16,872 nt of DNA from Candidatus Electronema aureum (GTDB taxonomy: Bacteria > Desulfobacterota > Desulfobulbia > Desulfobulbales > Desulfobulbaceae), in contig NQJD01000044.1 in NCBI GenBank assembly GCA_004284765.1, forward strand, positions 1-16,872. Reading direction: 5' to 3'. This document shows, in pieces, positions 3,462 to 16,319 of this stretch (its first letter is position 1; each line of letters starts with the position of its first letter). A model generated the notes under the pieces. That model had not been told where the DNA came from. It saw nothing but the letters and a program-made list of their open reading frames with translations, and made no database searches. Made by a program: the position numbers and the translations under genes.

Positions 3462-4337
3462 TCACTGCACTGCTGTTTTCAGTTCTGGATTAATCAGCTT
3501 TGCAATAATTGAAAGCGTGTTAGCAAAAGTAGCTGGTGAAGGACTACAGACTAAATCAGGGCTGATCACGTGTACCTGTTTATTCTGTACTGCGCTGACA
3601 AAGGGAAAACGTTGCCATTTTTCTTTCTCCTGTCGGGCAATGCCAGTCTCGCTACCCATCATGGCAATAAGAATAACATCTGGGTTCCGCTCAAGAACTT
3701 TTTCAAAACTTGTTGCCCCAGCTGTCTGATCCTCAAGCACATTTATTCCACCACTCAGAGCTATATAATCCTGAGTAAAAGAATCTTTTGCCGCACCAAA
3801 GAGCGGAGTAGCTCCGATTTGCAAAAAAACGTTACGGCGGGGCAGTGAAGCACTTTGAGCCGTAATCGCCTTCACCTTGCTTTTTGCCTGTCGGACTATC
3901 TCCTCAGCTCGCTGTTCTAATCCCAGCAATTTACCGATTTCAAGAAATTGGTTACATATCTCCGCAAAGGAAGCGGGCTGACGGAATTGCACAACCTTCA
4001 TGCCCAGCTTGCGCAGCTTCTCTATCTGCGGTGGTGAGGTCAAGCCTGTAGCCAAGATCAGATCAGGATGCAGACTTAGTATTTTTTCAACTGAGAACTG
4101 CATGACTGAACCGATCTTCGCCTTTTCTTTTGCCGCTGCCGGGCGAACACAATAACTCGTCGTGCCGACTAAGTGTTCACCCGCGCCGAGGAGAAAGACA
4201 TTTTCGGTGTTCATTGGACCGAGCGAGACAATCCGCTGCGGAAATGGCGCATTGCTGTCTTCTGCTACCGAACTATGAGGTGATAGAAGATGGCAAGACA
4301 GCAGCATAAGAACAGCGGCAAAAAGAAAATATCTCAT
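3462..4337 (-). CDS. ABC-type periplasmic substrate-binding protein, cobalamin/Fe-chelate class (BtuF-like)
   Basis: 291-aa ORF with signal peptide MRYFLFAAVLMLLSCHLL. The RIVSLGPMNTENVFLLGAGEHLVGTTSYC opening and the ...DVILIAMMG... block fit the class III (Peripla_BP_2-type) binding-protein pattern. The start lies 3 nt after the receptor stop, so it belongs to the same riboswitch-controlled operon. Confidence 0.78.
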   Translation of the reverse strand: MRYFLFAAVLMLLSCHLLSPHSSVAEDSNAPFPQRIVSLGPMNTENVFLLGAGEHLVGTTSYCVRPAAAKEKAKIGSVMQFSVEKILSLHPDLILATGLTSPPQIEKLRKLGMKVVQFRQPASFAEICNQFLEIGKLLGLEQRAEEIVRQAKSKVKAITAQSASLPRRNVFLQIGATPLFGAAKDSFTQDYIALSGGINVLEDQTAGATSFEKVLERNPDVILIAMMGSETGIARQEKEKWQRFPFVSAVQNKQVHVISPDLVCSPSPATFANTLSIIAKLINPELKTAVQ

Positions 4338-4340
4338 GGC

Positions 4341-6308
4341 TTAATATTCCCAGCGCAGAGCAGCAAAGAAACTGCGCCCCGGTAGCGGATATCCTTTAAT
4401 ATACGCATAGTCTTCATCAAAGAGATTACGCGCCTCGCCGCGCAAACTGAAAGCACCAAGTTGATCATTCTGGTAAAAACGCCACGAAGCAGTTGCATCT
4501 GTCACGGTACTGGCATCCAGCTCAACCAAGGGGACAGGGGATGCCACTGATTCCCAATCCTGCACTAACTGACTTCCCATATAGGCAATATTGAGCCGGA
4601 AAGAAAGACCATCGCCGTTATCAGCTATCAGCCCAGCTGAAATATTTGAGTCGCTGATCTGCTGCAAGTCCTCGCCCGTTGTCTCGTCTTCGTATTCAGT
4701 CAGAAGCGTCAGGTTCAGATAAGGACGAAGTTCCCAGCTCCAACCCATCAGCAAACCAAGATCATAAGAGAATTCACCTTCAAAGCCAGCAATGGTTGCA
4801 TCACCGAGATTCTTCCACGTTCTGGTGCCGTTATCAAGCGCATCAACAATGATTTTATCCTCGAAATCCGTATGAAAACCAGTGAGGGTTGCGTTGAAAC
4901 TGCTGCGACTGAAATCTACGCCAAGCTCGTAGGTGCTGTTTGTTTCAGGCTCAAGATCAGGATTACCTACCGTCCGAGTGCCGAAATTTGTGAAATCAGC
5001 AGAGAGCTGATCTGCTGAAGGCAGCATAAATCCTTGTGCGTACTGCGTTCGCAGCTTGAATTCTTTGGTGATCATCCACGCGAGACCTACTTGCGGGGTA
5101 AAGTGGCTGGCATCAGCATCTCTGCCAACAGGTTCGTTGACCTTCACTTGATACCAATCATGCCGAAGCCCTGCGCTGATCGTCAGTTGCTCATCGAAGA
5201 GACTGTTTTTGCCGAGAAGAAATACCGCCGGATTCGCATAGTCAGCAGCATTTGGAGTCCACGTGTTTTCAACTTCATAATCTAACCAATCAAATCCACC
5301 GGTGAGCAAAGCAGAGCCAAACTGACCGCTCAGATGTGCCTGCGCACCCTGCTGATTGGTCTTGTTTTTCGAGATTGTATCGTCATCCCAGCCGTCTGGA
5401 TTAGAAGCAGAGCCATCAAACCAAGAGTTGTTGTCTTGACCAAAAAAGTAGCGCGCCATCCACTGATACGGAGCTGTGGCAGACTTGCCGGTGTAGCTGA
5501 AATCAACCGAATAATTGTCTTTATCGGTACGGTCGTCCAGATCATTTTGGTTCAAATAACCGGGACTGCCTGCATCATCGATGTCCGAACCAGTGAAGAT
5601 CAGACCTAAGCGATTGTTCTCAGCAAACGACCACCCTGCGTTCATGCTCACATCACGTTGCTGATTGGCAGTATTACCGTAGTTCCGCCCGCTGCCGGTT
5701 TTGTAATCATCCTGTTCAGAATGAGAAACGCTGCCAGAAAAATCAAAGCTATCGGCTACGGTTGTACCACCGATGCTGAGTTTATGCGCAGCAAAGGAAC
5801 CTGCGCCGCCTTCCATGAACAAGGATTTTCCCTTAGCCCGACGAGTGATGACGTTGATCACGCCACCCATGCCAGCAGAACCGTACTGCACTGCTCCCGG
5901 CCCCCGGATGATCTCAATTCGTTCAACATTTTCGGTAAGCAACTTAGCAGCATTACCGGTTCCTGCACGACGACCGTTAAGCAAAATCAGCACATGTCCT
6001 TGGAGATCGTTACCGTGGGTATCCGTGCGGAAGCCACGTAGGCCAACAACGGTCATGCCACCAGGATAGGTACGAATCGTACCAACTGCCTTCTCGGTCA
6101 GTAGATCACCCAAATTGCGGCTGGCTGACTGCTGGATATCTTCTTGCGTGATCACTGTGACATTCGCACTGACCGTCTTTCTACTTTCCTCAGTACGTGA
6201 GGCGGTGACCACTACCTCATCCATCAGTACCGGAGCTGTAGCAAAGGATTCTGCGGCACATGCAACGGCCAGCAAAGGACAAACCAGAACAACATGACGA
6301 TGTTTCAT
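4341..6308 (-). CDS. btuB: TonB-dependent outer-membrane receptor, cobalamin-type (BtuB-like)
   Basis: ATG at 6308 is preceded by GAGGAGA. Signal peptide is MKHRHVVLVCPLLAVACAAESFA, with a TonB-box-like DEVVVTASR. Plug motifs are present (RIEIIRGPGAVQYGS), and the C-terminus ends in the aromatic ...AALRWEY typical of OM barrels. The gene lies directly downstream of a cobalamin riboswitch. The track ORF runs up to 6545, but that extension is the riboswitch leader. Confidence 0.88.
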   Translation of the reverse strand: MKHRHVVLVCPLLAVACAAESFATAPVLMDEVVVTASRTEESRKTVSANVTVITQEDIQQSASRNLGDLLTEKAVGTIRTYPGGMTVVGLRGFRTDTHGNDLQGHVLILLNGRRAGTGNAAKLLTENVERIEIIRGPGAVQYGSAGMGGVINVITRRAKGKSLFMEGGAGSFAAHKLSIGGTTVADSFDFSGSVSHSEQDDYKTGSGRNYGNTANQQRDVSMNAGWSFAENNRLGLIFTGSDIDDAGSPGYLNQNDLDDRTDKDNYSVDFSYTGKSATAPYQWMARYFFGQDNNSWFDGSASNPDGWDDDTISKNKTNQQGAQAHLSGQFGSALLTGGFDWLDYEVENTWTPNAADYANPAVFLLGKNSLFDEQLTISAGLRHDWYQVKVNEPVGRDADASHFTPQVGLAWMITKEFKLRTQYAQGFMLPSADQLSADFTNFGTRTVGNPDLEPETNSTYELGVDFSRSSFNATLTGFHTDFEDKIIVDALDNGTRTWKNLGDATIAGFEGEFSYDLGLLMGWSWELRPYLNLTLLTEYEDETTGEDLQQISDSNISAGLIADNGDGLSFRLNIAYMGSQLVQDWESVASPVPLVELDASTVTDATASWRFYQNDQLGAFSLRGEARNLFDEDYAYIKGYPLPGRSFFAALRWEY

Positions 6309-6340
6309 TCTCTCCTCGTTTTGTTTTGTCCGGGGAAAGA

Positions 6341-6380
6341 ATAAAAAAATCCCCGAACCAATTAAAGAATTGATCCGGGG
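6341..6380 (-). terminator. Intrinsic terminator forming the riboswitch expression platform
   Basis: The minus strand reads ccccggatcaatt-cttt-aattggttcgggg, a 13-bp stem that includes 2 G-U pairs. It is followed by ATTTTTTTATT and sits about 35 nt upstream of the btuB SD and ATG. Confidence 0.8.
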
Positions 6381-6695
6381 ATGCCCTTGTTTATCCGCAG
6401 ATACAGCGTGAGAATCTCTTATCCACGAAGATTCTCGCAGCAGAAGCCGTTCGTTACCATAGTTATAGCAACGCACTTTTCTACCCAGCGCAGACACTGC
6501 TGCGCTCGTTTTCAGGCAGGTCTTCTGACTTCTCTGCCCGTTCAACGGCCTTCCCGCCTATATTCTACAGACAGTGGCACACAAGGTTGAACAAGTTCCC
6601 TACTGCAAACAGCAAGGACAGAGTCACAGCGGCGGGCCCGTTCCGGTTTCGCACCGGATTCCCTTTTCATCCGCTTGCGCGGAACCTGAAAACAA
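6381..6695 (-). promoter_or_regulatory. Cobalamin (B12) riboswitch aptamer plus linker
   Basis: Minus-strand reading: ggttcc..gcgg atgAAAAGGGAAtCCGGTGcGAAAcCGGaaCGGgCCCGCCGCTGTga ... GCCACTGt...GGCGGGAAGGCc ... AGTCAGAAGACCTGCC. The last block is the B12 box, at 6515-6530. These are the conserved core blocks of the cobalamin riboswitch family. Confidence 0.88.
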
Positions 6696-6699
6696 TCGC

Positions 6700-6727
6700 A
6701 CTATACCAAAGATTGATGCAGTGTCAA
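6700..6727 (-). promoter_or_regulatory. Sigma70-type promoter driving the riboswitch-btuB operon
   Basis: On the minus strand, TTGACA (6727-6722), a 16-nt spacer and TATAGT (6705-6700). The riboswitch begins a few nt downstream. Confidence 0.7.
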
Positions 6728-6780: not shown

Positions 6781-7158
6781 TTACCGCCCAAAACCCCATG
6801 AAAAAGAAGCCTTCAGCCAATCGCCACCACCAGCTCGAACACCTGCGAACATGGTTTCAGCCATACCTGTTGAACCCATGATTCTGGCCACCTCAATCAT
6901 TAATTCAGCATCTGCGATCAAACGCTCTACCTCCTCACCGGGGTAGCCTGCCCAATATTTTAAATCATGCTTGAAGCAGGCTGGATACAAGTCAAAGCCT
7001 TGCCATTTATCGAACCAGAATGAGCAGCCATCAGACTTGAATGGCTTTGGCGGAGGATTCTTTTCAATCTTAGCCAACAGCTCATGTAGATGAAAATATC
7101 TGCACAGTTCTCTTATCTGTGCTAAGGGAACTACAGTTCCTGCCTTTGGAATATTCAT
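6781..7158 (-). CDS. Leaderless phospholipase-A2-like protein (prokaryotic/group XIV PLA2 or DUF1353-type His-Asp motif)
   Basis: 125-aa ORF. KSDGCSFWFDKWQGFDLYPACFKHDLKYW aligns by eye with the Streptomyces secreted PLA2 block STDLCTQAPDNPFGFPFNTACARHDFGYRNY (recalled from memory). Both share D.C(S/T), GF, AC..HD..Y, and later R(L)I.(D/A) and (A/G)V(K/R)..G. There is no signal peptide and no SD. The start lies 20 nt after the metallophosphoesterase stop. Confidence 0.6.
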   Translation of the reverse strand: MNIPKAGTVVPLAQIRELCRYFHLHELLAKIEKNPPPKPFKSDGCSFWFDKWQGFDLYPACFKHDLKYWAGYPGEEVERLIADAELMIEVARIMGSTGMAETMFAGVRAGGGDWLKASFSWGFGR

Positions 7159-7178
7159 AGCATAATATTGATATTTTT

Positions 7179-7985
7179 CTATGAAATACTAAAATTAGTT
7201 ATAGCATTATGCTGTAAATCAATTACAGGCACAACGAGCTTATCTGCATAATTAGGACGTGGCTCTGTTGTGGAGCCAGAGGCGAATATAACATCAATTC
7301 CGTACTCTTTTTCCCTATTCCCGTCATCTCCATTGAAACGTTTTTCAACATGCTTATGACCAAACAAGACACACTTTACTCGTGATGCACCGCTACTGCC
7401 TTTTTGTTTGATAATACTCTTGAAAGCGTCATCGTCTCTCAGTTGAAGAAAGTTATTGTAGAAAAAAGGATGATGATGTAGTGCTACAATAGCACGTTTG
7501 CCTGTACTGTCAAGATGATATAGGATGTCCTCCAAGGTTTTAAGCTGCTCCGCGCCTATCTCTCCCTGTGCACCCCATGTGTGATTATTCTGCATTTCAG
7601 AGAGCATTGAATCAAGCAGCACGATCGGATAGGTCGTATTGGGATCACAGTATGGATAGGTCAAATGGACATTATCTACTATATATTCCTTAAATCGGTA
7701 AATGCATTTATCTTTTTGAACTATGCCCGAAAAACCGTAGTCATGATTTCCTGGCACAGAAAAAACTTTTAGGTCTCCTGCGTTGAGCTTGTTAATCTGC
7801 ACCTGTGCATCCTGATATTCCTTTGAACGTCCGTTGTGAACAATATCACCTGTAATGATAACATAATCAGCTTGATGCAGATTTTTCTTATTGAGTATCC
7901 AGTTTACAATGGATGAAAAATGCTGCTCTCTAATATTGGTTGCATCTTTACCAACGTGAATATCAGACAGATGGATAATCCTCAT
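7179..7985 (-). CDS. Calcineurin-like metallophosphoesterase (CpdA/Icc-like motif set)
   Basis: 268-aa ORF with GGAGA 7 nt upstream of the ATG. All five MPE motifs occur in order: LSDIHVG, GDIVHNG, GNHD, ALHHHP, GHKH. No signal peptide. The gene is AT-rich. Confidence 0.88.
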   Translation of the reverse strand: MRIIHLSDIHVGKDATNIREQHFSSIVNWILNKKNLHQADYVIITGDIVHNGRSKEYQDAQVQINKLNAGDLKVFSVPGNHDYGFSGIVQKDKCIYRFKEYIVDNVHLTYPYCDPNTTYPIVLLDSMLSEMQNNHTWGAQGEIGAEQLKTLEDILYHLDSTGKRAIVALHHHPFFYNNFLQLRDDDAFKSIIKQKGSSGASRVKCVLFGHKHVEKRFNGDDGNREKEYGIDVIFASGSTTEPRPNYADKLVVPVIDLQHNAITNFSIS

Positions 7986-8178
7986 AATGTTCTCTCCAAC
8001 GTAGAATTAAGAAGCAAAGAGTTACGTCAACCGTATATCAAACACATCAACTAACCTACCTGAATACCCATTCCGTACCAGTCACAGTCACACCGGTGGC
8101 CCGACACGATGCAGCGATCCGGCTCCCGGAGATGGTGGGCTGGGAGCCGGTGGAGAGAGGAATGGAAATACATTTACT

Positions 8179-8511
8179 TTATATCTTGGTAGCTACCTTG
8201 GTGAGTAGGCCGATTACTTTAGTCAGATTGTTGATTACTTTGATGAAGTTCTCCATCTTTTTCATCTCATCCTGTAGCTCTTTGACTGCACCCTTAAGCT
8301 CTGGAGTATATTTATCGAACTCCTCTGCTATTACCTTAAGGATATTATAGTTTAGCTGAATTCTATATGTCATGAATTCAACAATTTTATCGCTCCACAC
8401 TGCCTTTTCTTTCTTGCTTCGCTTCTGGAGCCAAATATGAAAGTCATTTGACAAGAGGAGATCACTCTCAATCTTCTGTACTATGTCAATCAACTGATCT
8501 TGATTGTTCAT
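8179..8511 (-). CDS. Hypothetical small helical protein (110 aa), translationally coupled to upstream lipoprotein gene
   Basis: The AGGAGGA SD overlaps the TAA stop of the lipoprotein gene, with a 12-nt gap between the ORFs. Charged, heptad-like composition (KELQDEMKKMENFIKVINNLTKVIGLL). No signal peptide, TM segment or motif that I recognise. Confidence 0.6.
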   Translation of the reverse strand: MNNQDQLIDIVQKIESDLLLSNDFHIWLQKRSKKEKAVWSDKIVEFMTYRIQLNYNILKVIAEEFDKYTPELKGAVKELQDEMKKMENFIKVINNLTKVIGLLTKVATKI

Positions 8512-8523
8512 TCTATATCCTCC

Positions 8524-9393
8524 TTATGGTTTAACTGCATGAGCAGTAGCAAGAATATGTTTAATCTCGACCACAAGCGCATGAATACTACTTTGTGCAT
8601 CGTTGCCTGCCAGCAGCTTTTCAAAAATTAAACGCATTTTTTTAGATGCCTCTATAGCAGGTTTGATATCATTCACTGTTGACTTGAGCTGTATAGCCGC
8701 ACGACGTTTGGCAACCCAGTCTTCTTGCGTTGATAGAGGTTTGTCGCTCAAGAGAGGTTGCTTCACTAACAGAATCTCCTTCAACTCAGCTTCAGTTGTC
8801 AAAGCATGTGTAATCTGTCTATCCAATGTTTTTAGCAATAGCTCATGAATCTGTAGCTGTGTTCTAATAAGCTCCTGACGTTTTTCAAACTCTGCCCGCA
8901 ATACTGCTTTAATCCGGGTGTTGACAACAACTTTTGCCAGCTGCGGTAGCGTATTGACCACGTCTGGCGATGACACCTTTAGTTCTGTTGACAGTTTGTT
9001 CATCCCCGTAACCAGATTATTAATTGCAGTTTTCGTCTGGTCAGGTGCATCTGATGTTGCCAGCAACTCAAGCTGCGCAAAGTAATCAGCAAGCAATTTT
9101 GCATTGAACCTGAGGTGTTGAATGGTTGCTAATAGTTTGGCCTCTTCTTTGGTTAACGTATCATATTTTTCTGCACTCACCACGCCTGTGATGCCTTTGA
9201 CCTGCACCAAGCTCCATGAAGTTGAATCAATCTGAGCTTGCTCGGCGGTAACAAGTACCTTATCTACAGCTTTTGCATACTCTGAACCAGCTTGGGAAAA
9301 ATCTGCGTACTCGCTTTTTGGGTGAATAGCACATCCACTCAGTAGCAATAGACTGGCAACCGGGATCAGCATTGTTCTCTTTGTTAGTTTCAT
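8524..9393 (-). CDS. Predicted lipoprotein, all-alpha / coiled-coil-rich, unknown family
   Basis: 289-aa ORF with AAGGAGGA 7 nt upstream of the ATG. The signal peptide carries a lipobox: MKLTKRTMLIPVASLLLLSG|C. The remainder is helix-prone, rich in Leu/Lys/Glu/Gln/Thr, with no catalytic motif recognised. Confidence 0.75.
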   Translation of the reverse strand: MKLTKRTMLIPVASLLLLSGCAIHPKSEYADFSQAGSEYAKAVDKVLVTAEQAQIDSTSWSLVQVKGITGVVSAEKYDTLTKEEAKLLATIQHLRFNAKLLADYFAQLELLATSDAPDQTKTAINNLVTGMNKLSTELKVSSPDVVNTLPQLAKVVVNTRIKAVLRAEFEKRQELIRTQLQIHELLLKTLDRQITHALTTEAELKEILLVKQPLLSDKPLSTQEDWVAKRRAAIQLKSTVNDIKPAIEASKKMRLIFEKLLAGNDAQSSIHALVVEIKHILATAHAVKP

Positions 9394-9467
9394 AGCTTAT
9401 TCCTCCTTTATTTTTTATATAGAAGCTACGGTGAAAATATCTTTCAGCTATGCACAACATAGCATCC

Positions 9468-9515
9468 TAACGAGTAATCCTACTCATGATTAATGTTAGG
9501 AATGATTACTCGTTA
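9468..9515. promoter_or_regulatory. 12-bp perfect inverted repeat in the cassette's upstream region (candidate operator)
   Basis: taacgagtaatc (9468-9479) and gattactcgtta (9504-9515) are separated by 24 bp and lie 75-120 bp upstream of the lipoprotein ATG. An overlapping alternative pairing exists between cctaac (9466-9471) and gttagg (9495-9500). The function is inferred only. Confidence 0.35.
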
Positions 9516-9619
9516 AGTTTATTCAATCACCACAACGTGGTTCATGTCAAGCTGTTTCTTCAAGCCTGAACCCTTTTCTTTCTTTACCAAATAGGGAGCT
9601 GATTTTGTAGGACTGGGGG

Positions 9620-9670
9620 CAAAAAACAACTCAGCCCTGTCTGAACGCGGTGTTCAAGCAGGGCTGAGTT
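9620..9670 (-). terminator. Rho-independent terminator of the 139-aa gene
   Basis: 12-bp perfect stem: aactcagccctg (9628-9639) pairs with cagggctgagtt (9659-9670). On the minus strand it is followed by GTTTTTTG (9620-9627), and it lies 34 nt after the stop at 9704. Confidence 0.8.
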
Positions 9671-9703: not shown

Positions 9704-10123
9704 TCAATCAAGTAGAGCTACCACCTTTTGGTTAAGCGTTGCTACCACCTGTGGGATTTTAGCTGGCTCGCATTCTGCTGTCCGCTCAAGCATGTTGCCC
9801 CATTGTCTCAGCATTTCGCTGTCTATTTTCCTGATGTCGTTGCTTTTACTCCACTCGCGACCAATCTTAGCACCCAGCTCTTCAAGATTTCTTTGGAGAT
9901 CACTTTTTAGTTCTACAGGAGCCTTTGCCAAAATTGTCGATGTGATATCCTTCCAGCCACGAGCATATAAGGTACCTTGCTGGAAGGTATCAAACCACGC
10001 CCGTTCTTGGGCTGAAAGCTGCTCTCTGCCCTGCCGCTGTCCTCCCGCAGCCTGCGGCGGCAGCACAGACAACATGCCCAGTTGAACAAGGGCAACCGCA
10101 TAAAAGATATAGTTGACGCGCAT
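9704..10123 (-). CDS. Hypothetical secreted/periplasmic protein (139 aa)
   Basis: Has its own consensus promoter and terminator. N-terminal signal-like segment MRVNYIFYAVALVQLGMLSVLPPQAA, followed by a helical, charged body. No family recognised. Confidence 0.65.
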   Translation of the reverse strand: MRVNYIFYAVALVQLGMLSVLPPQAAGGQRQGREQLSAQERAWFDTFQQGTLYARGWKDITSTILAKAPVELKSDLQRNLEELGAKIGREWSKSNDIRKIDSEMLRQWGNMLERTAECEPAKIPQVVATLNQKVVALLD

Positions 10124-10257: not shown

Positions 10258-11262
10258 TCAAACGATGGCTATCAGGACGAGGAACGTTCCGATGAAAAGC
10301 AGCAGACAAAGTAGGGATGCGGCCAGAACTAAGCGACAGACAAGGAGGATATGCTGCTTTGTAGGAAGGTGAAGTGGATCGCCGATCAGAGGTTTACTCA
10401 CAATCCTACCAAAATAGAGCGACTCTCCGCCAAGCTGGATACCCAATGCACCAGCAGCAGCAGCTTCTGGCCAGCCAGAGTTAGGACTGGCGTGCTGCTG
10501 TCGGTCACGAATAAGGATACGCCACGTGTTCTTCAAGCTACCACCGTAGATCGGCGCAGCAAGAACGAGCGCAAGCCCTGAGATTCGGGCTGGAAGAAGA
10601 TTGGCCCAATCATCGAGCCGGGCCGCGCAGCAGCCGAAGTGCAGGTAGCGTTCGTTCTTGTAGCCGAACATGGAATCCATCGTGCTGACCGCCTTGTAGA
10701 GCATAGCTGCTAAGACGGCACAAACAGCGGGCCAGCTTCCTCCGGCAGGCAAGGCAACGACAGCTCCAACAGTCGCCCAGAACAGCGGGGCAATAATGCC
10801 GTCAGACATGTTCTCTGCCACGCTCTCCACACAAGCACGAATCACCGCAGGCTTGTTCAATTGATCGGTGTCTCGACCCACGATCAAGGCAACCTGCTTT
10901 CGGGCTGCTTCGATGCTTTCGTCTAAAGCGGCATGAACCTGCATAGCATGGCGAAGCAAATCACGGGCTGCTATCGTAGTATAGAGCAGAAAGGCGGTTC
11001 CGGCTAAGAACAGCGGCTGGGAACATTGGGCAACCAAGAACAACAGCGTGGCGCAGCTACAGCCGGTAAAGAGCAAGACCAGCAGCACAGTCAGGCTGCC
11101 ACTGTTCCGCTCACTCAAGGGCAAGCTGCGGGTGAAGCTCTCCATTTTGGCTGCAAACCAGCCGATAATTCGCACCGGATGTGGGAACCAGCGCGGATCA
11201 CCGAAGAACAGATCAAGGATACAGGCTGCCAGCAGCGTATAGATAAAGGACATGTTCTTCAT
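10258..11262 (-). CDS. cbiB: Adenosylcobinamide-phosphate synthase CbiB/CobD (membrane protein)
   Basis: 334-aa polytopic ORF. The N-terminal ACILDLFFGDPRWFPHPVRIIGW carries the CobD/CbiB hallmark (D.P...PHPV...G). Later blocks are RDTD.L, ESVAEN.SDGIIAPLFW and HASPNSGWPEAAAAGALGIQLGG. Confidence 0.9.
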   Translation of the reverse strand: MKNMSFIYTLLAACILDLFFGDPRWFPHPVRIIGWFAAKMESFTRSLPLSERNSGSLTVLLVLLFTGCSCATLLFLVAQCSQPLFLAGTAFLLYTTIAARDLLRHAMQVHAALDESIEAARKQVALIVGRDTDQLNKPAVIRACVESVAENMSDGIIAPLFWATVGAVVALPAGGSWPAVCAVLAAMLYKAVSTMDSMFGYKNERYLHFGCCAARLDDWANLLPARISGLALVLAAPIYGGSLKNTWRILIRDRQQHASPNSGWPEAAAAGALGIQLGGESLYFGRIVSKPLIGDPLHLPTKQHILLVCRLVLAASLLCLLLFIGTFLVLIAIV

Positions 11263-11267
11263 CCCAC

Positions 11268-13679
11268 CTACCTTCTCTTCCGCTTCTGCCGTGCCAGCAC
11301 TTCCTTGAAGAAGCCATGCACGTTGAAGGTGATGCCGAGAAGACTTGGCTTCAACTCAAAAAGGTCGTTCATCATCTCCAGCCAACTCGCCTCATCGCTC
11401 CCCTGCTTGTCTATCTTCTGCACCAACCCATCCAGCTCATCTCTGTGCTTCGGCTGCACCAGACCAAGCAGCTCATGCACACTGTATTTCTTCTTTGAGC
11501 CAATGGGAATAAAGATGTCCGAACCAGCCTCCGCGAGGTCGAGCAGGTTCTCATAGTCTGCGCTGCCATGCTGGTCATCCGGCATCGGCACGCGCTCGCT
11601 GACGGTGAGCTTCTCAAAGCCGCTGTTAATATCGGCCAGCGTGTAGCGGAGATAATGCAGATACTCCCTGCGCTGCTCTCTATTCGCCCAGATGTTGATG
11701 CGCCGCGCCTCTATATCTGCCTTAACCAAAGCCTGCGCCCCGCTGCGCTGATCCTCCAGCAGCACGCCGGTGCGCCAGCAGGTTGCCGCCTTGATGTCCC
11801 TATGCACCTTGACCATGAAGCGGGGAAAGACTGACGGCGGCAGGAAGTCGGGGTAATGCAGGGCGAAACGGAGCGAGCCGCTCTGCTTGAAGGATAACTT
11901 CGGCTCGCTGACCGGCAGAAGCTGCGGGATGAGCACCGCCTCCTTGCCGACCGGGTAGCACAGCTCGAACTTCTCCATCAGGCCCATGATATATGGGTGC
12001 GTGTCGGGCGGGTAGGAATGCTTTTTCTCCCCCCTGAGCGGCAGGATTTCACCCAAGCACTTCAAGCTAAGGAGGCCCTTTCTGTCCGCCATCTTCTCAG
12101 CAGTGATGATCTTATAGACCGCCTCTGTGACCCAGATCGGGTCCAGCACGTGCATGGCATCGAGGATGAACTCCTTGAAATGCACGGCCACGCCGAGATC
12201 ATGTAGGAAGTCCACCAGCACCTCGCAGCTCTGCGCCTCGGTGATGCCCGCCTCTTTGCAGATGCCTTTGTACTCCTCCGCGCTGATGTAGGGTCTGTCT
12301 AACTGCTCCAGCCGCTGCTTGACCGCAAACCAGCTGCCGGGCCAGACAGTGCCAATCATCTCCACCTTGTCCAGCTCCGTCAGCAATGCCTCTTTGAACT
12401 GGGCCACACCCGTGCTGCTCTTGCAGGAGATGCGGAAGAAGTCGCGGATGCCGGGGTATTTCTCCAGCAGGAAAGGCCGGTTGACATCAAACGAGGGGTT
12501 GCTATCCATCTTGTTGAGGACCACCAGCACAGGCGAGTCGCCGCCAAATGCCTCGATGTGCCGCAGCCAGTATTCCATCCGCTCGTCCTTGCGGCCATCA
12601 AGCACGAGGACATACAGGCTGCGCTTGGAGAGGAAGAACTGGTGCGTGGCGTGCTGTATCTCTTGGCCGCCAAAGTCCCAGATATTGATCCTGATCTTCC
12701 GCCCGCCGACCTCCTGCTCCCAGCCTTGGATGTTGATGCCGTGCGTGGTATCCTCGTGCTGGTCAAACGCCTGGCCGAGGAGCTGCTTGACCAGCGAGGT
12801 CTTGCCTGCCGCGCCGTCACCAACGAGGAGAATCTTCACCTCGTTGAGAGGCTGGTCTTCTGGTTGGAGGGAGGCGAAATACTGGCGGATGGCTTGTTTA
12901 CCCTTTGAGGCGACCTCCAGCGGAGGGGAAATGAGGGGGTTATCGCTGAGGCTAAATACAGTCAGACGGGTGAGCTGGCAGATTTCAGGTGGAAGAGTGA
13001 TGAGCTGATTATTGTTTAGGTATAGACTCATCAGGCTAGTAAGTTGACTAATTTCAGGCGGGAGGTCTGTGAGCTGGTTATAGCTAAGTTCAAGTCGCCT
13101 CAGATTAGTGAGCTGGAATAGCTCAGAAGGTAAGGTGGCAAACCGGTTGTATCTTAGGTCAAGTTTAGTCAGGTTGGCAAGTTGGCAGATTTCGGGCGGG
13201 AGGTCTGCGAGCTGGTTGTAACTCAGGTCAAGCCTCCTTAGATTCGTAAGCTGGAATAGCTCAGAAGGTAGGGTTGTGAACTGATTCCCGCCAAGGTCAA
13301 TATCTGTCAGATTAATGAGCTGGCAGAGTTCTGGTAGCAGTGTGATGGGGTTATTAGCCCGAAGGCTAATTTTTTTCAGCTTCCTCAACTGGCATATTTC
13401 AGACGGTAAGGTGGCAAGCTGGTTGCCGCTGAGGTTAAGCTCAGTCAGGTTAGTGAGCTGGCAGAGTTCTATAGGCAGGGAGGTGAGCTGGTTACCGCTG
13501 AGGTCAAGCCGCCTTAGATTAGTGAGCTGGAATAGCTCAAAAGGCAAGGTTGTGAGCTGATCGTGACCGAGGTAAAATTCAGTCTCCCCGCTTGCCTTTG
13601 CCTTCTCTATCCTCTTCAGCAACCATTCATTCGTCATCGCCTGCGCACCTATGTTGTTTGTGGGGTAGGGGCACGACAT
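11268..13679 (-). CDS. ROCO-family GTPase: N-terminal leucine-rich repeats, Roc (Ras-of-complex) GTPase, COR domain
   Basis: 803-aa ORF. Residues about 38-250 form roughly 9-10 LRRs of 23 aa (L..L..L.LS.NQL..LP.EI.QL). The Roc motifs are VKILLVGDGAAGKTSL (G1), WDFGGQE (G3) and LNKMD (G4). A COR-like region of about 300 aa follows. The C-terminus is polybasic (ARQKRKRR). An alternative start is Met15 at 13637, because ATG 13679 lies inside a 28-bp palindrome. Both candidates have SD-like AGG(G/T)G upstream. Confidence 0.85.
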   Translation of the reverse strand: MSCPYPTNNIGAQAMTNEWLLKRIEKAKASGETEFYLGHDQLTTLPFELFQLTNLRRLDLSGNQLTSLPIELCQLTNLTELNLSGNQLATLPSEICQLRKLKKISLRANNPITLLPELCQLINLTDIDLGGNQFTTLPSELFQLTNLRRLDLSYNQLADLPPEICQLANLTKLDLRYNRFATLPSELFQLTNLRRLELSYNQLTDLPPEISQLTSLMSLYLNNNQLITLPPEICQLTRLTVFSLSDNPLISPPLEVASKGKQAIRQYFASLQPEDQPLNEVKILLVGDGAAGKTSLVKQLLGQAFDQHEDTTHGINIQGWEQEVGGRKIRINIWDFGGQEIQHATHQFFLSKRSLYVLVLDGRKDERMEYWLRHIEAFGGDSPVLVVLNKMDSNPSFDVNRPFLLEKYPGIRDFFRISCKSSTGVAQFKEALLTELDKVEMIGTVWPGSWFAVKQRLEQLDRPYISAEEYKGICKEAGITEAQSCEVLVDFLHDLGVAVHFKEFILDAMHVLDPIWVTEAVYKIITAEKMADRKGLLSLKCLGEILPLRGEKKHSYPPDTHPYIMGLMEKFELCYPVGKEAVLIPQLLPVSEPKLSFKQSGSLRFALHYPDFLPPSVFPRFMVKVHRDIKAATCWRTGVLLEDQRSGAQALVKADIEARRINIWANREQRREYLHYLRYTLADINSGFEKLTVSERVPMPDDQHGSADYENLLDLAEAGSDIFIPIGSKKKYSVHELLGLVQPKHRDELDGLVQKIDKQGSDEASWLEMMNDLFELKPSLLGITFNVHGFFKEVLARQKRKRR
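12930..13568 (-). repeat. 69-bp-periodic coding repeats (LRR units), including a ~138-bp tandem duplication
   Basis: Near-identical DNA blocks ttagatt(a/c)gt(g/a)agctggaatagctca(g/a)aagg occur at about 13100-13140, 13236-13278 and 13510-13558. The two-LRR module 13005-13142 is closely similar to 13143-13280 (TLPSELFQLTNLRRL(D/E)LSYNQL(A/T)DLPPEI). Confidence 0.8.
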
Positions 13680-13895: not shown

Positions 13896-14585
13896 TCAAA
13901 GCAAACTGACCACCGCCAGCATCCGCTCCGCCACCTCGTCTGCTGTCAGCTCAGAGGCATCTATCAGCACCGCGTCCTCAGCCATGCGCAGCGGGGCGAT
14001 GGTGCGTTCGCGGTCGTTGCGGTCACGCTCGATGATCTGGGCGAGCAGCTCCGCTTCATCCGGCACGGCCTGCCCCTTGGCGCGGAGCTGCCCAACTCGC
14101 CGTCGGCACCGCTCTTCAGGCGGCGCGTCCAAGTAGAACTTCCACGCCGCAGCCGGGAAAACCACCGTGCCGGTGTCACGGCCTTCAGCGACGATCTCCC
14201 CTGCCCTGCCCATCTTCTGCTGCAAGGCAGTCAGCGTTGATCTCACTGTCGGCAAGGCGGAGACCTGCGAGGCCATCATTCCCGCTTCCGGGCTGCGGAT
14301 GGCCGCGCTGATGTCCTCGTCATGCAGGAACACCCGCACATCATCTCCCTCGTGCAATGGCGGCAGCAGACGGATATCCAGCCGCGCAAGCAGGACGTTG
14401 AGCGCAGCTGAATCAGCCAGTTCGATGCCCGCCTGCCTGCATTGAAAACCGACCGCCCGGTACATCGCCCCAGTGTCCAAATACGTCCAGCCAAGGGCCG
14501 CAGCCACCTTGCGGCTGACCGTGGATTTGCCCACACCGGACGGGCCGTCAATCGTGACCACCTTCAGCCGCATCGCGCCGCTCAT
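13896..14585 (-). CDS. cmk: Cytidylate kinase
   Basis: IDGPSGVGKSTVSRKVAAALGWTYLDTGAMYRAV is the P-loop plus CMP-binding opening typical of Cmk. I chose the start at ATG 14585 (MSGAMRLKVVTIDGP...), which has GGGGA 7 nt upstream. The track ORF extends to 14666, but that would add about 27 non-conserved residues. Confidence 0.88.
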   Translation of the reverse strand: MSGAMRLKVVTIDGPSGVGKSTVSRKVAAALGWTYLDTGAMYRAVGFQCRQAGIELADSAALNVLLARLDIRLLPPLHEGDDVRVFLHDEDISAAIRSPEAGMMASQVSALPTVRSTLTALQQKMGRAGEIVAEGRDTGTVVFPAAAWKFYLDAPPEERCRRRVGQLRAKGQAVPDEAELLAQIIERDRNDRERTIAPLRMAEDAVLIDASELTADEVAERMLAVVSLL

Positions 14586-14669
14586 AACCATTTCCCCTTC
14601 CATAAGAGCCTCTGCATAGTCTGCTGGTATGCTACTCGGCATACGGGTTGATATGCCCCTCGGCATGTT

Positions 14670-16319
14670 TTACAGCTGATGGGCGAGGGCCGCTGCGATG
14701 AAGGCCCGGAAGAGCGGATGCGGCAGCATGGGCTTGGATTTGAACTCAGGGTGGAACTGGCAGCCGAGGAACCACGGATGCCCGCCAAGTTCGACGATCT
14801 CAACCAGACTGCCGTCCGGCGAGGAACCGCTTATGACCATCCCTGCCTGCTCCAGACGTTCACGGTAGAGCGTGTTGAACTCATAGCGATGTCTGTGCCG
14901 CTCGCTGATCTCGCTCTGCGCGTAGGCGGCATGGGCGAGGCTGTTTGCTTGCAGCACGCATGGGTAGGCACCAAGGCGCAATGTCCCTCCCATGTCGGAG
15001 CGCTCATCCCTTGTTTCCGTCCTGCCGCTGCGGAAGTCAAACCACTCCTTCATCAGGTAGATGACTGGGTGGGCAGTGGCCGGGTTCAGCTCCACCGAAT
15101 CCGCTCCCTCAAGCCCAGCAACATTGCGGGCGAATTCCACCACCGCCAGCTGCATCCCCAGGCAGATGCCAAAGAACGGCACCTTGCTTTCTCTGGCGTG
15201 CTGAATGGCCCTGATCTTCCCTTCCGTGCCTCGGCTGCCAAAGCCTCCGGGCACCAGTATGCCGTCGCAGTCTGCCAGCTCATTCACAGAGCCGCCGCCT
15301 TCCAAGTCATCTGCCGCGATATAGCGCAGATGCACCTTGGCATCGCAGGCCAAGCCGCCGTGAATCAGGGCCTCATGCAGGCTTTTGTACGCCTCTTTCA
15401 GCTCCACATATTTGCCGGTGATGCCTATGGTCACGCTGCGCGACGGACTCTTGCTCCGCCTGACCAGATCCTGCCAAGGAGCGATGTTTGGTGCACCTGT
15501 CCAGATGCCCAACTTCTGGAGGATGCGGTGGTCTGCTCCCTCCTCATGCAGGCGCAAAGGCAGCTCGTAGATGTTGTCCACATCAACGGCTGTGAAGACC
15601 GCTTCCGCCTCGATGTTGCAGAAGAGGGCAATCTTTTTCTTCACCCCTGCGTCCAAGGGTGTTTCGGTGCGGCAAATAAGGATGTCGGGCTGAATGCCTG
15701 CGGCCAGCAGCTCTTTAACAGAGTGTTGTGTTGGCTTGGTCTTTATCTCGCCGGCGGTCTTAATGAACGGAACTAATGTCAGGTGAATGAACAGTGAGTA
15801 GTCACGCCCCAAGTCGCCTCGCAGCTGGCGGATGGCCTCGATGAAGGGCAGGCCCTCAATGTCTCCGACCGTGCCGCCTATCTCCACTATTGCCACGTCC
15901 GCCATCCCGTCTAACTGCATGACGGAACGTTTGATCTCATCGGTGATATGCGGAATCATCTGCACAGTGCCGCCAAGGTACTCGCCGCGCCGCTCCTTCA
16001 TGATCACCGAATAATATATCCGGCCAGATGTGTAGTTGTTGATCCGCCCCATGACCGCCTTGGTATAGCGTTCATAGTGGCCCATATCGAGGTCAGTTTC
16101 CGCGCCGTCGTCCGTTACATAGACCTCACCATGCTGGAAGGGATTCATCGTTCCAGGGTCAACATTGATGTAGGGATCAAGCTTTTGGAAGGTAACGGTC
16201 ATACCTCTGCTTTCCAGCAGAGCACCGATGGAGGCTGCGGCCAGCCCCTTACCGAGGGAGGAGAGCACGCCTCCGGTGATGAAGATGAATTTTGTCTTTC
16301 TACTGGCTTGGATGTCCAT
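14670..16319 (-). CDS. pyrG: CTP synthase
   Basis: 549-aa ORF. N-terminal [17 protein letters not shown] (synthetase domain). The C-terminal glutamine amidotransferase domain has GICLGMQ (nucleophile Cys) and ...HRHRYE. GAGGA lies 5 nt upstream of the ATG. Confidence 0.95.

Follow-up and report, generated by a model that had tools for sequence, protein, structure and literature searches.

A probable mosaic operon of a lipoprotein module and a metallophosphoesterase/PLA2-like module in Candidatus Electronema aureum

In this study, a gene cluster at positions 6781–9515 was investigated in a 16,872-nucleotide (nt) stretch of DNA, hereafter the window, from Candidatus Electronema aureum (NCBI GenBank assembly GCA_004284765.1, contig NQJD01000044.1). 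An earlier note on this DNA, made from the sequence alone, had proposed that the cluster was a single envelope-linked defence system wedged into a cobalamin locus. The four co-oriented minus-strand genes that it described were present, with open reading frames (ORFs) of 125, 268, 110, and 289 amino acids (aa) in order of increasing coordinate. In the direction of transcription, they were a 289-aa lipoprotein gene (8524–9393), a 110-aa protein gene (8179–8511), the gene of a 268-aa metallophosphoesterase (MPE; 7179–7985), and the gene of a 125-aa protein resembling phospholipase A2 (PLA2; 6781–7158). A G+C-rich junction segment (8082–8178) and the 3' remnant of a displaced gene (8022–8081) lay between the second and third genes. 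A predicted promoter with a palindrome in its spacer (9521–9550) and a 5' leader with two hairpins (9394–9520) preceded the lipoprotein gene, all on the minus strand. The results indicated that 6781–9560 was very probably a mosaic operon of two independent modules, confined to the lineage of Ca. Electronema aureum GS.

The cluster was delimited on both sides. The left boundary was the strong intrinsic hairpin terminator of the upstream cbiB/139-aa unit (9621–9670, minus strand), which is outside the operon and consists of a 19-nt inverted repeat (9628–9646/9652–9670) followed by GTTTTTT on the minus strand. The right boundary was the btuB promoter with its cobalamin riboswitch (6498–6727, minus strand), a separate transcription unit. 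The riboswitch at 6498–6704 matched Rfam RF00174 with 100.3 bits, and the promoter TTGACA-16-TATAGT was found at 6727–6700, where the earlier note had placed it. Other direct readings of that note also held. The upstream inverted repeat was a perfect 12-nt repeat at 9468–9479/9504–9515. The lipoprotein and 110-aa genes were tightly coupled, with a gap of 12 nt and the Shine-Dalgarno sequence AAGGAGGA overlapping the TAA stop codon; this pairing was kept at four sites. The MPE and PLA2-like genes were 20 nt apart, their adjacency was statistically recurrent, and the PLA2-like gene had no Shine-Dalgarno sequence, which falls short of the 'leaderless' gene of the earlier note. Because no canonical terminator was found between the genes, co-transcription of all four is inferred.

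The G+C content of 6781–9515 was 41.4%, lower than in the flanks (left, 49.6%; right, 55.3%). The hand counts of single 60-nt lines given earlier were exact (22/60, 23/60, and 35/60). The region was thus AT-rich as claimed, but the deviation did not stop abruptly at the ends of the cluster: G+C was 46–47% in btuF, usp, and ate, and the G+C content at third codon positions (GC3) was already low from ~1700 to ~10100. Among the criteria for a genomic island, compositional deviation alone was found. A search of the window for tRNA genes and flanking direct repeats found neither, and no integrase domain was found in ten window ORFs scanned with Pfam. The 268-aa MPE protein was found in one complete genome, that of Ca. 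Electronema aureum GS (GCA_942492785.1, OW818638.1, ~2.917–2.938 Mb), and on a 14-kb Logan contig of the same organism.

The co-occurrence of the four families was investigated by tblastn and hidden Markov model (HMM) searches over 183 loci (1.9 Mb). All four occurred together nowhere in the 183 loci except in the source genome (L001) and in a contig of the same organism (L002). The earlier note had named beforehand a lack of co-occurrence outside close relatives as the finding that would speak against its four-gene system, and the four families were not syntenic in unrelated genomes. The closest relative, L102, was a Logan contig whose BtuB was 98.6% identical. It carried a protein of a 396-aa family, MPE (78%), PLA2-like protein (86%), and btuB; the lipoprotein pair was missing, and the 396-aa homologue stood in its place. 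DNA homology between L102 and the window ran from 4318 to exactly 8081 and then ended. A more distant relative, L009, whose MPE was 68% identical, had the order promoter, 114-aa gene, 346-aa gene, 396-aa gene, MPE gene. The window and L009 shared two blocks only, 9560–9444 (86%) and 8081–7185 (75%). The first block, which took in the promoter together with ~75 nt at the start of the leader, matched L009 4983–5100, before a different gene.

The breakpoint at 8081 coincided with a gene stump. Positions 8081–8022 encoded LVRNGYSGRLVDVFDIRLT*, corresponding to the 3'-terminal 19 codons of a gene of the 396-aa family, with in-frame stops directly upstream. In translation, LVRNGYSGRLVDVFDIRLT* matched the C-termini of the 396-aa proteins that precede MPE in L102 and L009. 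The stump and the two-block homology therefore indicated that an orthologous promoter had kept its place while the 114/346/396 genes behind it gave way to the lipoprotein/110-aa pair. The junction at 8082–8178 had 60% G+C and a 9-bp hairpin without a T-run, and was unique to this genome. The segment 7986–8185 was also considered as a terminator or structured RNA and was rejected, as it was no stabler than shuffled sequence (z = 0.17).

The divergence between the window and L102 was unequal along the locus. The synonymous divergence (dS) was 0.11 for btuB, 0.27 for MPE, and 0.40 for the PLA2-like gene, and the ratio of non-synonymous to synonymous divergence (dN/dS) was 0.05, 0.44, and 0.20, respectively. 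Since its dS was higher than that of btuB, the hydrolase segment has a different history or is under weaker constraint. Within 6781–7985, compared with L102 636–1826, the identity of 100-nt windows varied from 75% to 94%. This mosaic divergence suggested recombination or relaxed constraint in the hydrolase segment.

The position of the cluster in a cobalamin locus was not conserved. The surroundings of cbiB were compared in 80 Desulfobulbales genomes (loci of the series L022–L099). The 139-aa gene followed cbiB at 28 loci, and cbiB was never within 10 kb of a homologue of this btuB or btuF or of any cassette gene. The idea of a cassette wedged into a cobalamin locus was thus given up. There was no simple empty site either, because in none of the 80 relatives did synteny continue past the 139-aa gene.

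The promoter element at 9550–9521 (minus strand) was TTGACA-TGAA-CCACGTTGTGG-TGA-TTGAAT, or in short form TTGACA-N4-CCACNNNGTGG. Judged from the sequence, it can be read as a −35 element, an operator-like palindrome CCACGTTGTGG, and an extended −10 element. The same element preceded the lipoprotein pairs in L017 (~7910) and L019 (~5594) and, in L009, the 114/346/396/MPE cluster. There were no other matches in the 1.9 Mb of loci. The shared putative operator suggested that envelope genes of cable bacteria form a small regulon. The 127-nt leader had a predicted folding energy of −31.4 kcal/mol (z = −3.1). As a known riboswitch the leader was rejected, as it matched no Rfam family. One compensatory change was seen in a leader hairpin stem between the window and L009.

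The lipoprotein had a signal peptide and the lipobox LLLLSG followed by Cys, in the context MKLTKRTMLIPVASLLLLSG-C, which agrees with the pattern [LVI][ASTG][GA]C and confirmed the lipoprotein identity assigned earlier. The lipobox Cys21 was invariant across phyla in 29 close and 37 distant homologues. The AlphaFold2 (AF2) model was all-helical with long helices and a predicted local distance difference test (pLDDT) score of 78. No Pfam match was found for the lipoprotein or for 37 family members, and PADLOC matched neither the lipoprotein nor any of the 37 (0/37). The model retrieved generic helical bundles only from PDB and BFVD (E > 0.1), with no viral fold match, and the family profile retrieved designed helical proteins only from PDB sequences. 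A tblastn search of plasmids with the lipoprotein and a cyanobacterial homologue as queries found nothing. A word-based search with 30 hits had pointed to a family restricted to cable bacteria. This was ruled out by the profile search, which gave 959 clusters at 50% identity in several phyla, 328 of them with E ≤ 1e-30; Kentron, Sumerlaeota, Chthonomonadaceae, and Calothrix were among the members.

The 110-aa protein was helical and had no signal peptide, though its partner is exported. It matched no family in Pfam, PADLOC, NCBIfam, or PHROGs (best PADLOC E = 0.002). Homologues of the lipoprotein were found at three further sites: L017 (between mfd and DUF1622) and L019 (between PPTase and a MiaB-like gene), 51–55% identical, and L020 in the same genome (near glnA/mutS), a paralogue 27% identical. 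At each of them a 110-aa homologue directly followed the lipoprotein gene, and neither MPE nor the PLA2-like gene came after it. The identity of the partner was 52% in L019 and 42% in L017, where it had a C-terminal extension. The lipoprotein and the 110-aa protein were thus a genuine conserved pair, with the partner present in all four loci examined; these loci belong to cable bacteria or closely related organisms. No Rosetta-stone fusion of the two was found among 176 family members, and the pairs in L017, L019, and L020 were not near TonB-dependent receptors. The extended partner in L017 (8885–9742) reached 285 aa; the added part contained a hydrophobic linker and, at the C-terminus, a beta-rich domain without a Pfam match. 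The signal peptide MKLTKRAMIIPVASLLLLSGCA hardly differed between paralogues and homologues, although the identity of their mature parts was only ~25%, and the same-genome paralogues had 77% DNA identity over the 91-nt 5' end only (window 9329–9419 and L020 7975–8065).

The PLA2-like protein belonged to a very large and highly conserved family. The search gave 842 hits, the best 120 at 66–78% identity across phyla, with Desulfobulbus and the verrucomicrobium Opitutus terrae among the members. The match to PF09056 had 21.1 bits, under the gathering threshold of 29.4, and covered residues 32–69 only. In Foldseek, the top four PDB matches of the AF2 model (pLDDT 83) were 7ygk, 4aup (two chains), and 8k1w, with probabilities of 0.96–1.0; the TM-scores to solved PLA2s were moderate (0.44–0.55). 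The family profile also placed these three solved PLA2s at the top, and aligned to them the core SDGCS...PAC-x-HD-x-x-Y. Residues S42, D43, G44, C45, H64, D65, Y68, and D83 were invariant among 36 homologues. The modelled fold supported a PLA2 fold with an intact predicted His64-Asp65 dyad, and the PLA2-like assignment of the earlier note was right at the level of fold and motif. A signal peptide was present in 6/36 homologues; the window protein and most others had none. The ORF could not be extended upstream, and the conserved domain began at the start codon. The secretion and disulfide features of the PLA2 class were missing from the protein, and Cys61 was lost in several homologues. The orthologues in Opitutus and Desulfobulbus elongatus had unrelated flanking genes, with neither MPE nor lipoprotein adjoining.

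The MPE matched the Pfam family Metallophos PF00149 over residues 1–213 (68.9 bits, cut-off 21.5). The metal motifs DxH, GD, GNH[DE], H, and GHxH were all present and were invariant in 31 homologues (D8, H10, G46, D47, G79, N80, H81, H170–172, G209, H210, H212). The family was a small clade, with 31 hits in the word-based search. There was no signal peptide, and the first metal motif at residues 8–10 left no room for one. The best solved relatives of the profile were Lmo2642, Rv0805/Icc, GpdQ, and the N-terminus of SbcD/Mre11. By its sequence the MPE appears to be a cytoplasmic enzyme similar to class III phosphodiesterases. In the CpdA equivalog test (NCBIfam NF008359) it scored 46.5 bits, far below the cut-off of 225, and the GenBank name 'CpdA' is therefore an over-annotation. 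The scores against two anti-phage models were 59.2 bits for DS9_1 (NF053862; cut-off 420, 486 model positions) and 57.3 bits for DS8 (NF053861; cut-off 790, 994 model positions). In PADLOC the MPE gave weak N-terminal motif matches only (MPE 'Effector', PDC-S60/S10). Orthologues with 41–68% identity were found in four other genomic contexts. In three of these, PNP_UDP_1 nucleosidase/phosphorylase and Amidohydro_1 deaminase genes were nearby (L009 8829–11518; L013 8940–9779; L015 10995–13157), a proximity that hints at a possible role of the MPE in nucleoside metabolism.

The association of the two hydrolases was then considered apart from the lipoprotein pair. The first lead was a contig on which a PLA2-like gene, 76% identical, had a distant MPE (27% identical to the window MPE) directly downstream. 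Then 80 metagenomic PLA2-like loci were sampled, with genes clustered at 90% identity. An MPE was the immediate neighbour in 7/50 informative clusters. These MPEs belonged to three subfamilies, lay upstream or downstream with gaps of 5–150 nt, and formed at least four arrangements. In an unbiased Pfam census of 94 immediate neighbours of 60 non-redundant PLA2-like genes, Metallophos was the top family with 7, followed by DUF6765 (4), Response_reg (3), and others (two or fewer each). As a control, the same MPE HMMs gave one hit in 1.18 Mb of other loci, a background of ~0.1%. The adjacency of MPE and PLA2-like genes was thus a real, facultative association. As most members of both families were solitary, their functional coupling, if any, is facultative. 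TonB receptors adjoined PLA2-like genes only in the window and in L102.

DUF6765, the second commonest PLA2-like neighbour (L115 4713–5702, L137, L152/L153, L155, L183), had invariant His and Asp residues (H6, D35, H77, D82, H131, D135, H139, H162, D170, H308), which suggest a putative metal-dependent hydrolase; a Zn-phospholipase-C-like protein would be one candidate. A comparison of its profile with PDB sequences gave no solved relative. A literature search gave nothing relevant on the E. aureum lipoprotein, the PLA2/MPE gene neighbourhood, or DUF6765.

The explanation put forward combines the mosaic operon with a lipid-turnover function, and as a whole it is judged somewhat probable. In the first module, the palindromic-operator promoter and the structured leader would drive the lipoprotein and its 110-aa partner. 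The second module would consist of the cytoplasmic MPE and, after it, the PLA2-fold protein without signal peptide. The PLA2-like enzyme would remove an acyl chain from a glycerophospholipid on the cytoplasmic side of the membrane, and the MPE would then cleave the phosphodiester of the deacylated product or of a lipid head group. Acting together, the two hydrolases would serve the turnover or remodelling of membrane phospholipid, and the lipoprotein pair may be a co-regulated envelope module with a separate role. Lipid remodelling had been named earlier as one of several alternatives; it is the reading favoured here for the hydrolase pair, with low confidence. As a function of the MPE and the PLA2-like protein taken by itself, lipid turnover remains tentative and no better than possible.

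Several points weigh against this explanation. The closest solved relatives of the MPE are mostly nucleotide phosphodiesterases or nucleases, and the PNP_UDP_1 and Amidohydro_1 genes near its orthologues point to nucleoside chemistry. The PF09056 match is sub-threshold and the TM-scores are moderate. The secretory PLA2 class needs Ca2+ and disulfide bonds, which makes activity in the cytoplasm uncertain. An MPE neighbour was found in 14% of PLA2-like clusters only, a minority arrangement, and no lipid-metabolism genes recurred beside either family in the neighbour census. The dN/dS of 0.44 for MPE, with a dS 2.5 times that of btuB, fits fast-evolving accessory genes, conflict genes included. 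Finally, the co-transcription of the four genes is a prediction from the lack of a canonical terminator.

In a rival reading, the two hydrolases would be neighbours by accident, with a CpdA/Rv0805-like MPE in nucleoside salvage, separate roles for the PLA2-like protein and the lipoprotein pair, and adjacency statistics that reflect operon shuffling. In 3/4 other contexts, the MPE orthologues have PNP_UDP_1 and Amidohydro_1 genes beside them or close by, the best full-length solved relatives are cyclic-nucleotide phosphodiesterases, 43/50 informative PLA2-like clusters have no MPE neighbour, and the region is visibly rearranged. However, 7/94 Metallophos neighbours against a background of ~0.1%, in three subfamilies and at least four arrangements, are unlikely by chance, and an accidental juxtaposition is considered doubtful. 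The recurrence of the adjacency, with varied MPE subfamilies and gene orders, could also be produced by an undescribed two-gene conflict pair of abortive-infection or toxin type, in which the phospholipase would destroy the inner membrane when triggered and the MPE would sense or degrade a nucleotide signal; co-transcription with the envelope lipoprotein pair would then be a chance of this genome. Low G+C, variable upstream cargo, the elevated mosaic divergence (MPE dN/dS 0.44 against 0.05 for btuB), the weak MPE matches to DS9_1, DS8, and the PADLOC MPE profiles, and the potential self-toxicity of a cytoplasmic enzyme with a PLA2 site are in line with such a pair. The matches to defence models, however, were far under cut-off and mainly concerned generic metal motifs, and the PLA2-like protein had no PADLOC match. 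An identity of 66–78% across phyla is unusual for conflict effectors. The neighbours of the PLA2-like genes were housekeeping genes (DinB, K+ and Na+/H+ transporters, response regulators) and not defence genes, no candidate for a cyclase, sensor, or immunity gene was seen, and most members of both families were solitary. The conflict pair is therefore held to be unlikely. A reading in which the PLA2-fold/MPE pair is an undescribed, horizontally mobile two-gene module that would, on a signal, turn against the inner membrane of its own cell or remodel it, as abortive infection or stress suicide, is quite unlikely. In cable bacteria it would place the module at the 3' end of a promoter-leader 'landing pad', where envelope cassettes (the lipoprotein/110-aa pair or the 114/346/396-aa genes) would be swapped between strains, and this part is quite unlikely as well.

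The single four-gene defence system of the earlier note, with the lipoprotein pair as envelope sensor and the MPE and PLA2-like protein as effectors, had in its favour the apparent single transcription unit with one conserved promoter and no canonical terminator between the genes, the low G+C content, and the presence of envelope and hydrolase components together. It has become very improbable, as all four families occur only in L001 and L002, in the closest relative L102 the site of the lipoprotein pair is taken by another gene, and the gene stump shows that this pair was inserted secondarily; the pair also stands alone at three other sites, with 0/37 members matching PADLOC. Least credible of all is a phage-derived moron or an exclusion lipoprotein that would mask the adjacent BtuB receptor. 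Weak PHROG matches were seen for the PLA2-like protein (phrog_6098, E = 4e-4) and the MPE (phrog_1649), and btuB adjoins the locus here and in L102. However, no relatives were found in 2.9 million viral contigs by single-protein scans with the PLA2-like protein, the MPE, and the lipoprotein or by an alignment scan with the PLA2-like family, and the lipoprotein had no viral fold match. As the window also had no tRNA gene or flanking repeats, and its ten scanned ORFs no integrase, the suggested link to phages was not borne out. Receptor masking is opposed by L102, which retains MPE, PLA2-like gene, and btuB without the lipoprotein, and by the other lipoprotein pairs, which are not near TonB-dependent receptors; TonB neighbours occurred in two loci only.

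The mosaic operon with a lipid-turnover function was compared with known systems. Scans of five small proteins against PADLOC-DB v2, NCBIfam, and PHROGs gave nothing above cut-off, and PADLOC had no match for the PLA2-like, lipoprotein, and 139-aa proteins. The earlier statement that the cluster fits no named defence system thus stands for the PADLOC and NCBIfam scans. PlcP is reportedly an MPE-family phospholipase C for phospholipid replacement under phosphate starvation, present in Sinorhizobium (SMc00171) and in marine heterotrophs. An MPE-family enzyme acting on membrane phospholipid would be common to PlcP lipid renovation and the window module, and a second lipolytic enzyme fits this theme. 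Unlike the PlcP module, the window MPE had no Pho box, glycosyltransferase, or betaine-lipid genes nearby, and the palindrome CCACGTTGTGG was not read as a Pho box. Anti-phage phosphoesterase/phospholipase systems likewise combine an MPE domain with an enzyme of membrane-lytic type, and the window region is likewise of low G+C content, variable, and strain-specific. CBASS, the cyclic-oligonucleotide-based anti-phage signalling system, uses patatin effectors. In contrast to such systems, the window had no cyclase, NTPase, sensor, or immunity gene, and gave sub-cut-off matches to generic motifs only.

Among the single components, the window MPE shares the full metal-motif set, the single domain, and the length of ~260 aa with class III MPEs (Rv0805/Icc/CpdA, GpdQ, Lmo2642). 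Its profile aligns almost over the full length with Rv0805/Icc and Lmo2642; it is far under the equivalog cut-off of CpdA and not an orthologue. The secreted PLA2s of Sciscionella marina (7ygk), Saccharothrix espanaensis (8k1w), and Tuber borchii (4aup) have the same small all-helical fold as the PLA2-like protein. In contrast to the secreted PLA2s of PF09056, the window family is set apart by 35 conserved N-terminal residues of its own and by the C-terminal motif SFSWGFGR, and is very highly conserved (66–78% across phyla), and the window protein has no signal peptide, is under the Pfam threshold, and has a TM-score of ~0.5. TraT, Llp, and Cor are exclusion lipoproteins, and Lpp/OprI are of the alanine-zipper type. 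The window lipoprotein shares with the Lpp/OprI-type helical lipoproteins a lipobox, predicted elongated helices, and the envelope location. It is longer (289 aa), and the match to the Lpp/OprI model had E = 0.069 and 13.7 bits against a cut-off of 43. Unlike these and the exclusion lipoproteins, it has a 110-aa partner without signal peptide, no Pfam model, and no structural match. The parts thus add new members to known superfamilies (MPE, PLA2 fold, lipoproteins), in undescribed combinations; none amounts to a recognised system, and none is strongly surprising.

Dropping the false four-gene 'system' keeps catalogues of defence systems clean of that entry. A very conserved PLA2-fold family, mostly without signal peptide and with an MPE as its commonest neighbour, hints at an unstudied bacterial pathway of phospholipid or phosphodiester turnover. 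The lipoprotein family, which is large and missing from Pfam and was accompanied by a small partner at each of the four loci looked at, is a second lead. The locus also illustrates clearly how, in cable bacteria, one cassette has replaced another while the promoter and leader in front stayed conserved. These bacteria are not yet genetically manipulable, and the shared putative operator could define a regulon in them. All three leads are new and testable.

The remaining genes of the window near the cluster were on the minus strand as well. Downstream, btuB, encoding a 655-aa BtuB, was at 4341–6308, followed by a btuF-like gene at 3462–4337. The mechanically called btuB ORF (4341–6545, 734 aa, TTG start) extended into the riboswitch; the called gene of 655 aa begins with MKHRHVV at window position 6308. 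Upstream, the gene of a secreted 139-aa protein was at 9704–10123. This protein had a signal peptide and no family assignment, and was conserved downstream of cbiB (10258–11262). A Roco-type LRR-Roc-COR protein gene (11268–13679) lay 5 nt directly upstream of cbiB and encoded a bacterial Roco protein of 803 aa (LRR, Roc GTPase, COR-A, COR-B); in 0/80 relatives did a Roco gene adjoin cbiB. Further upstream were cmk (13896–14666) and pyrG (14670–16319). In the source genome, a DDE transposase gene was just past pyrG (L001 407–1300), and a Gp49/helix-turn-helix (HTH) toxin-antitoxin-like pair was past der (L001 18037–18563). A transposase and a toxin-antitoxin-like pair nearby are consistent with a rearranged region of the chromosome.

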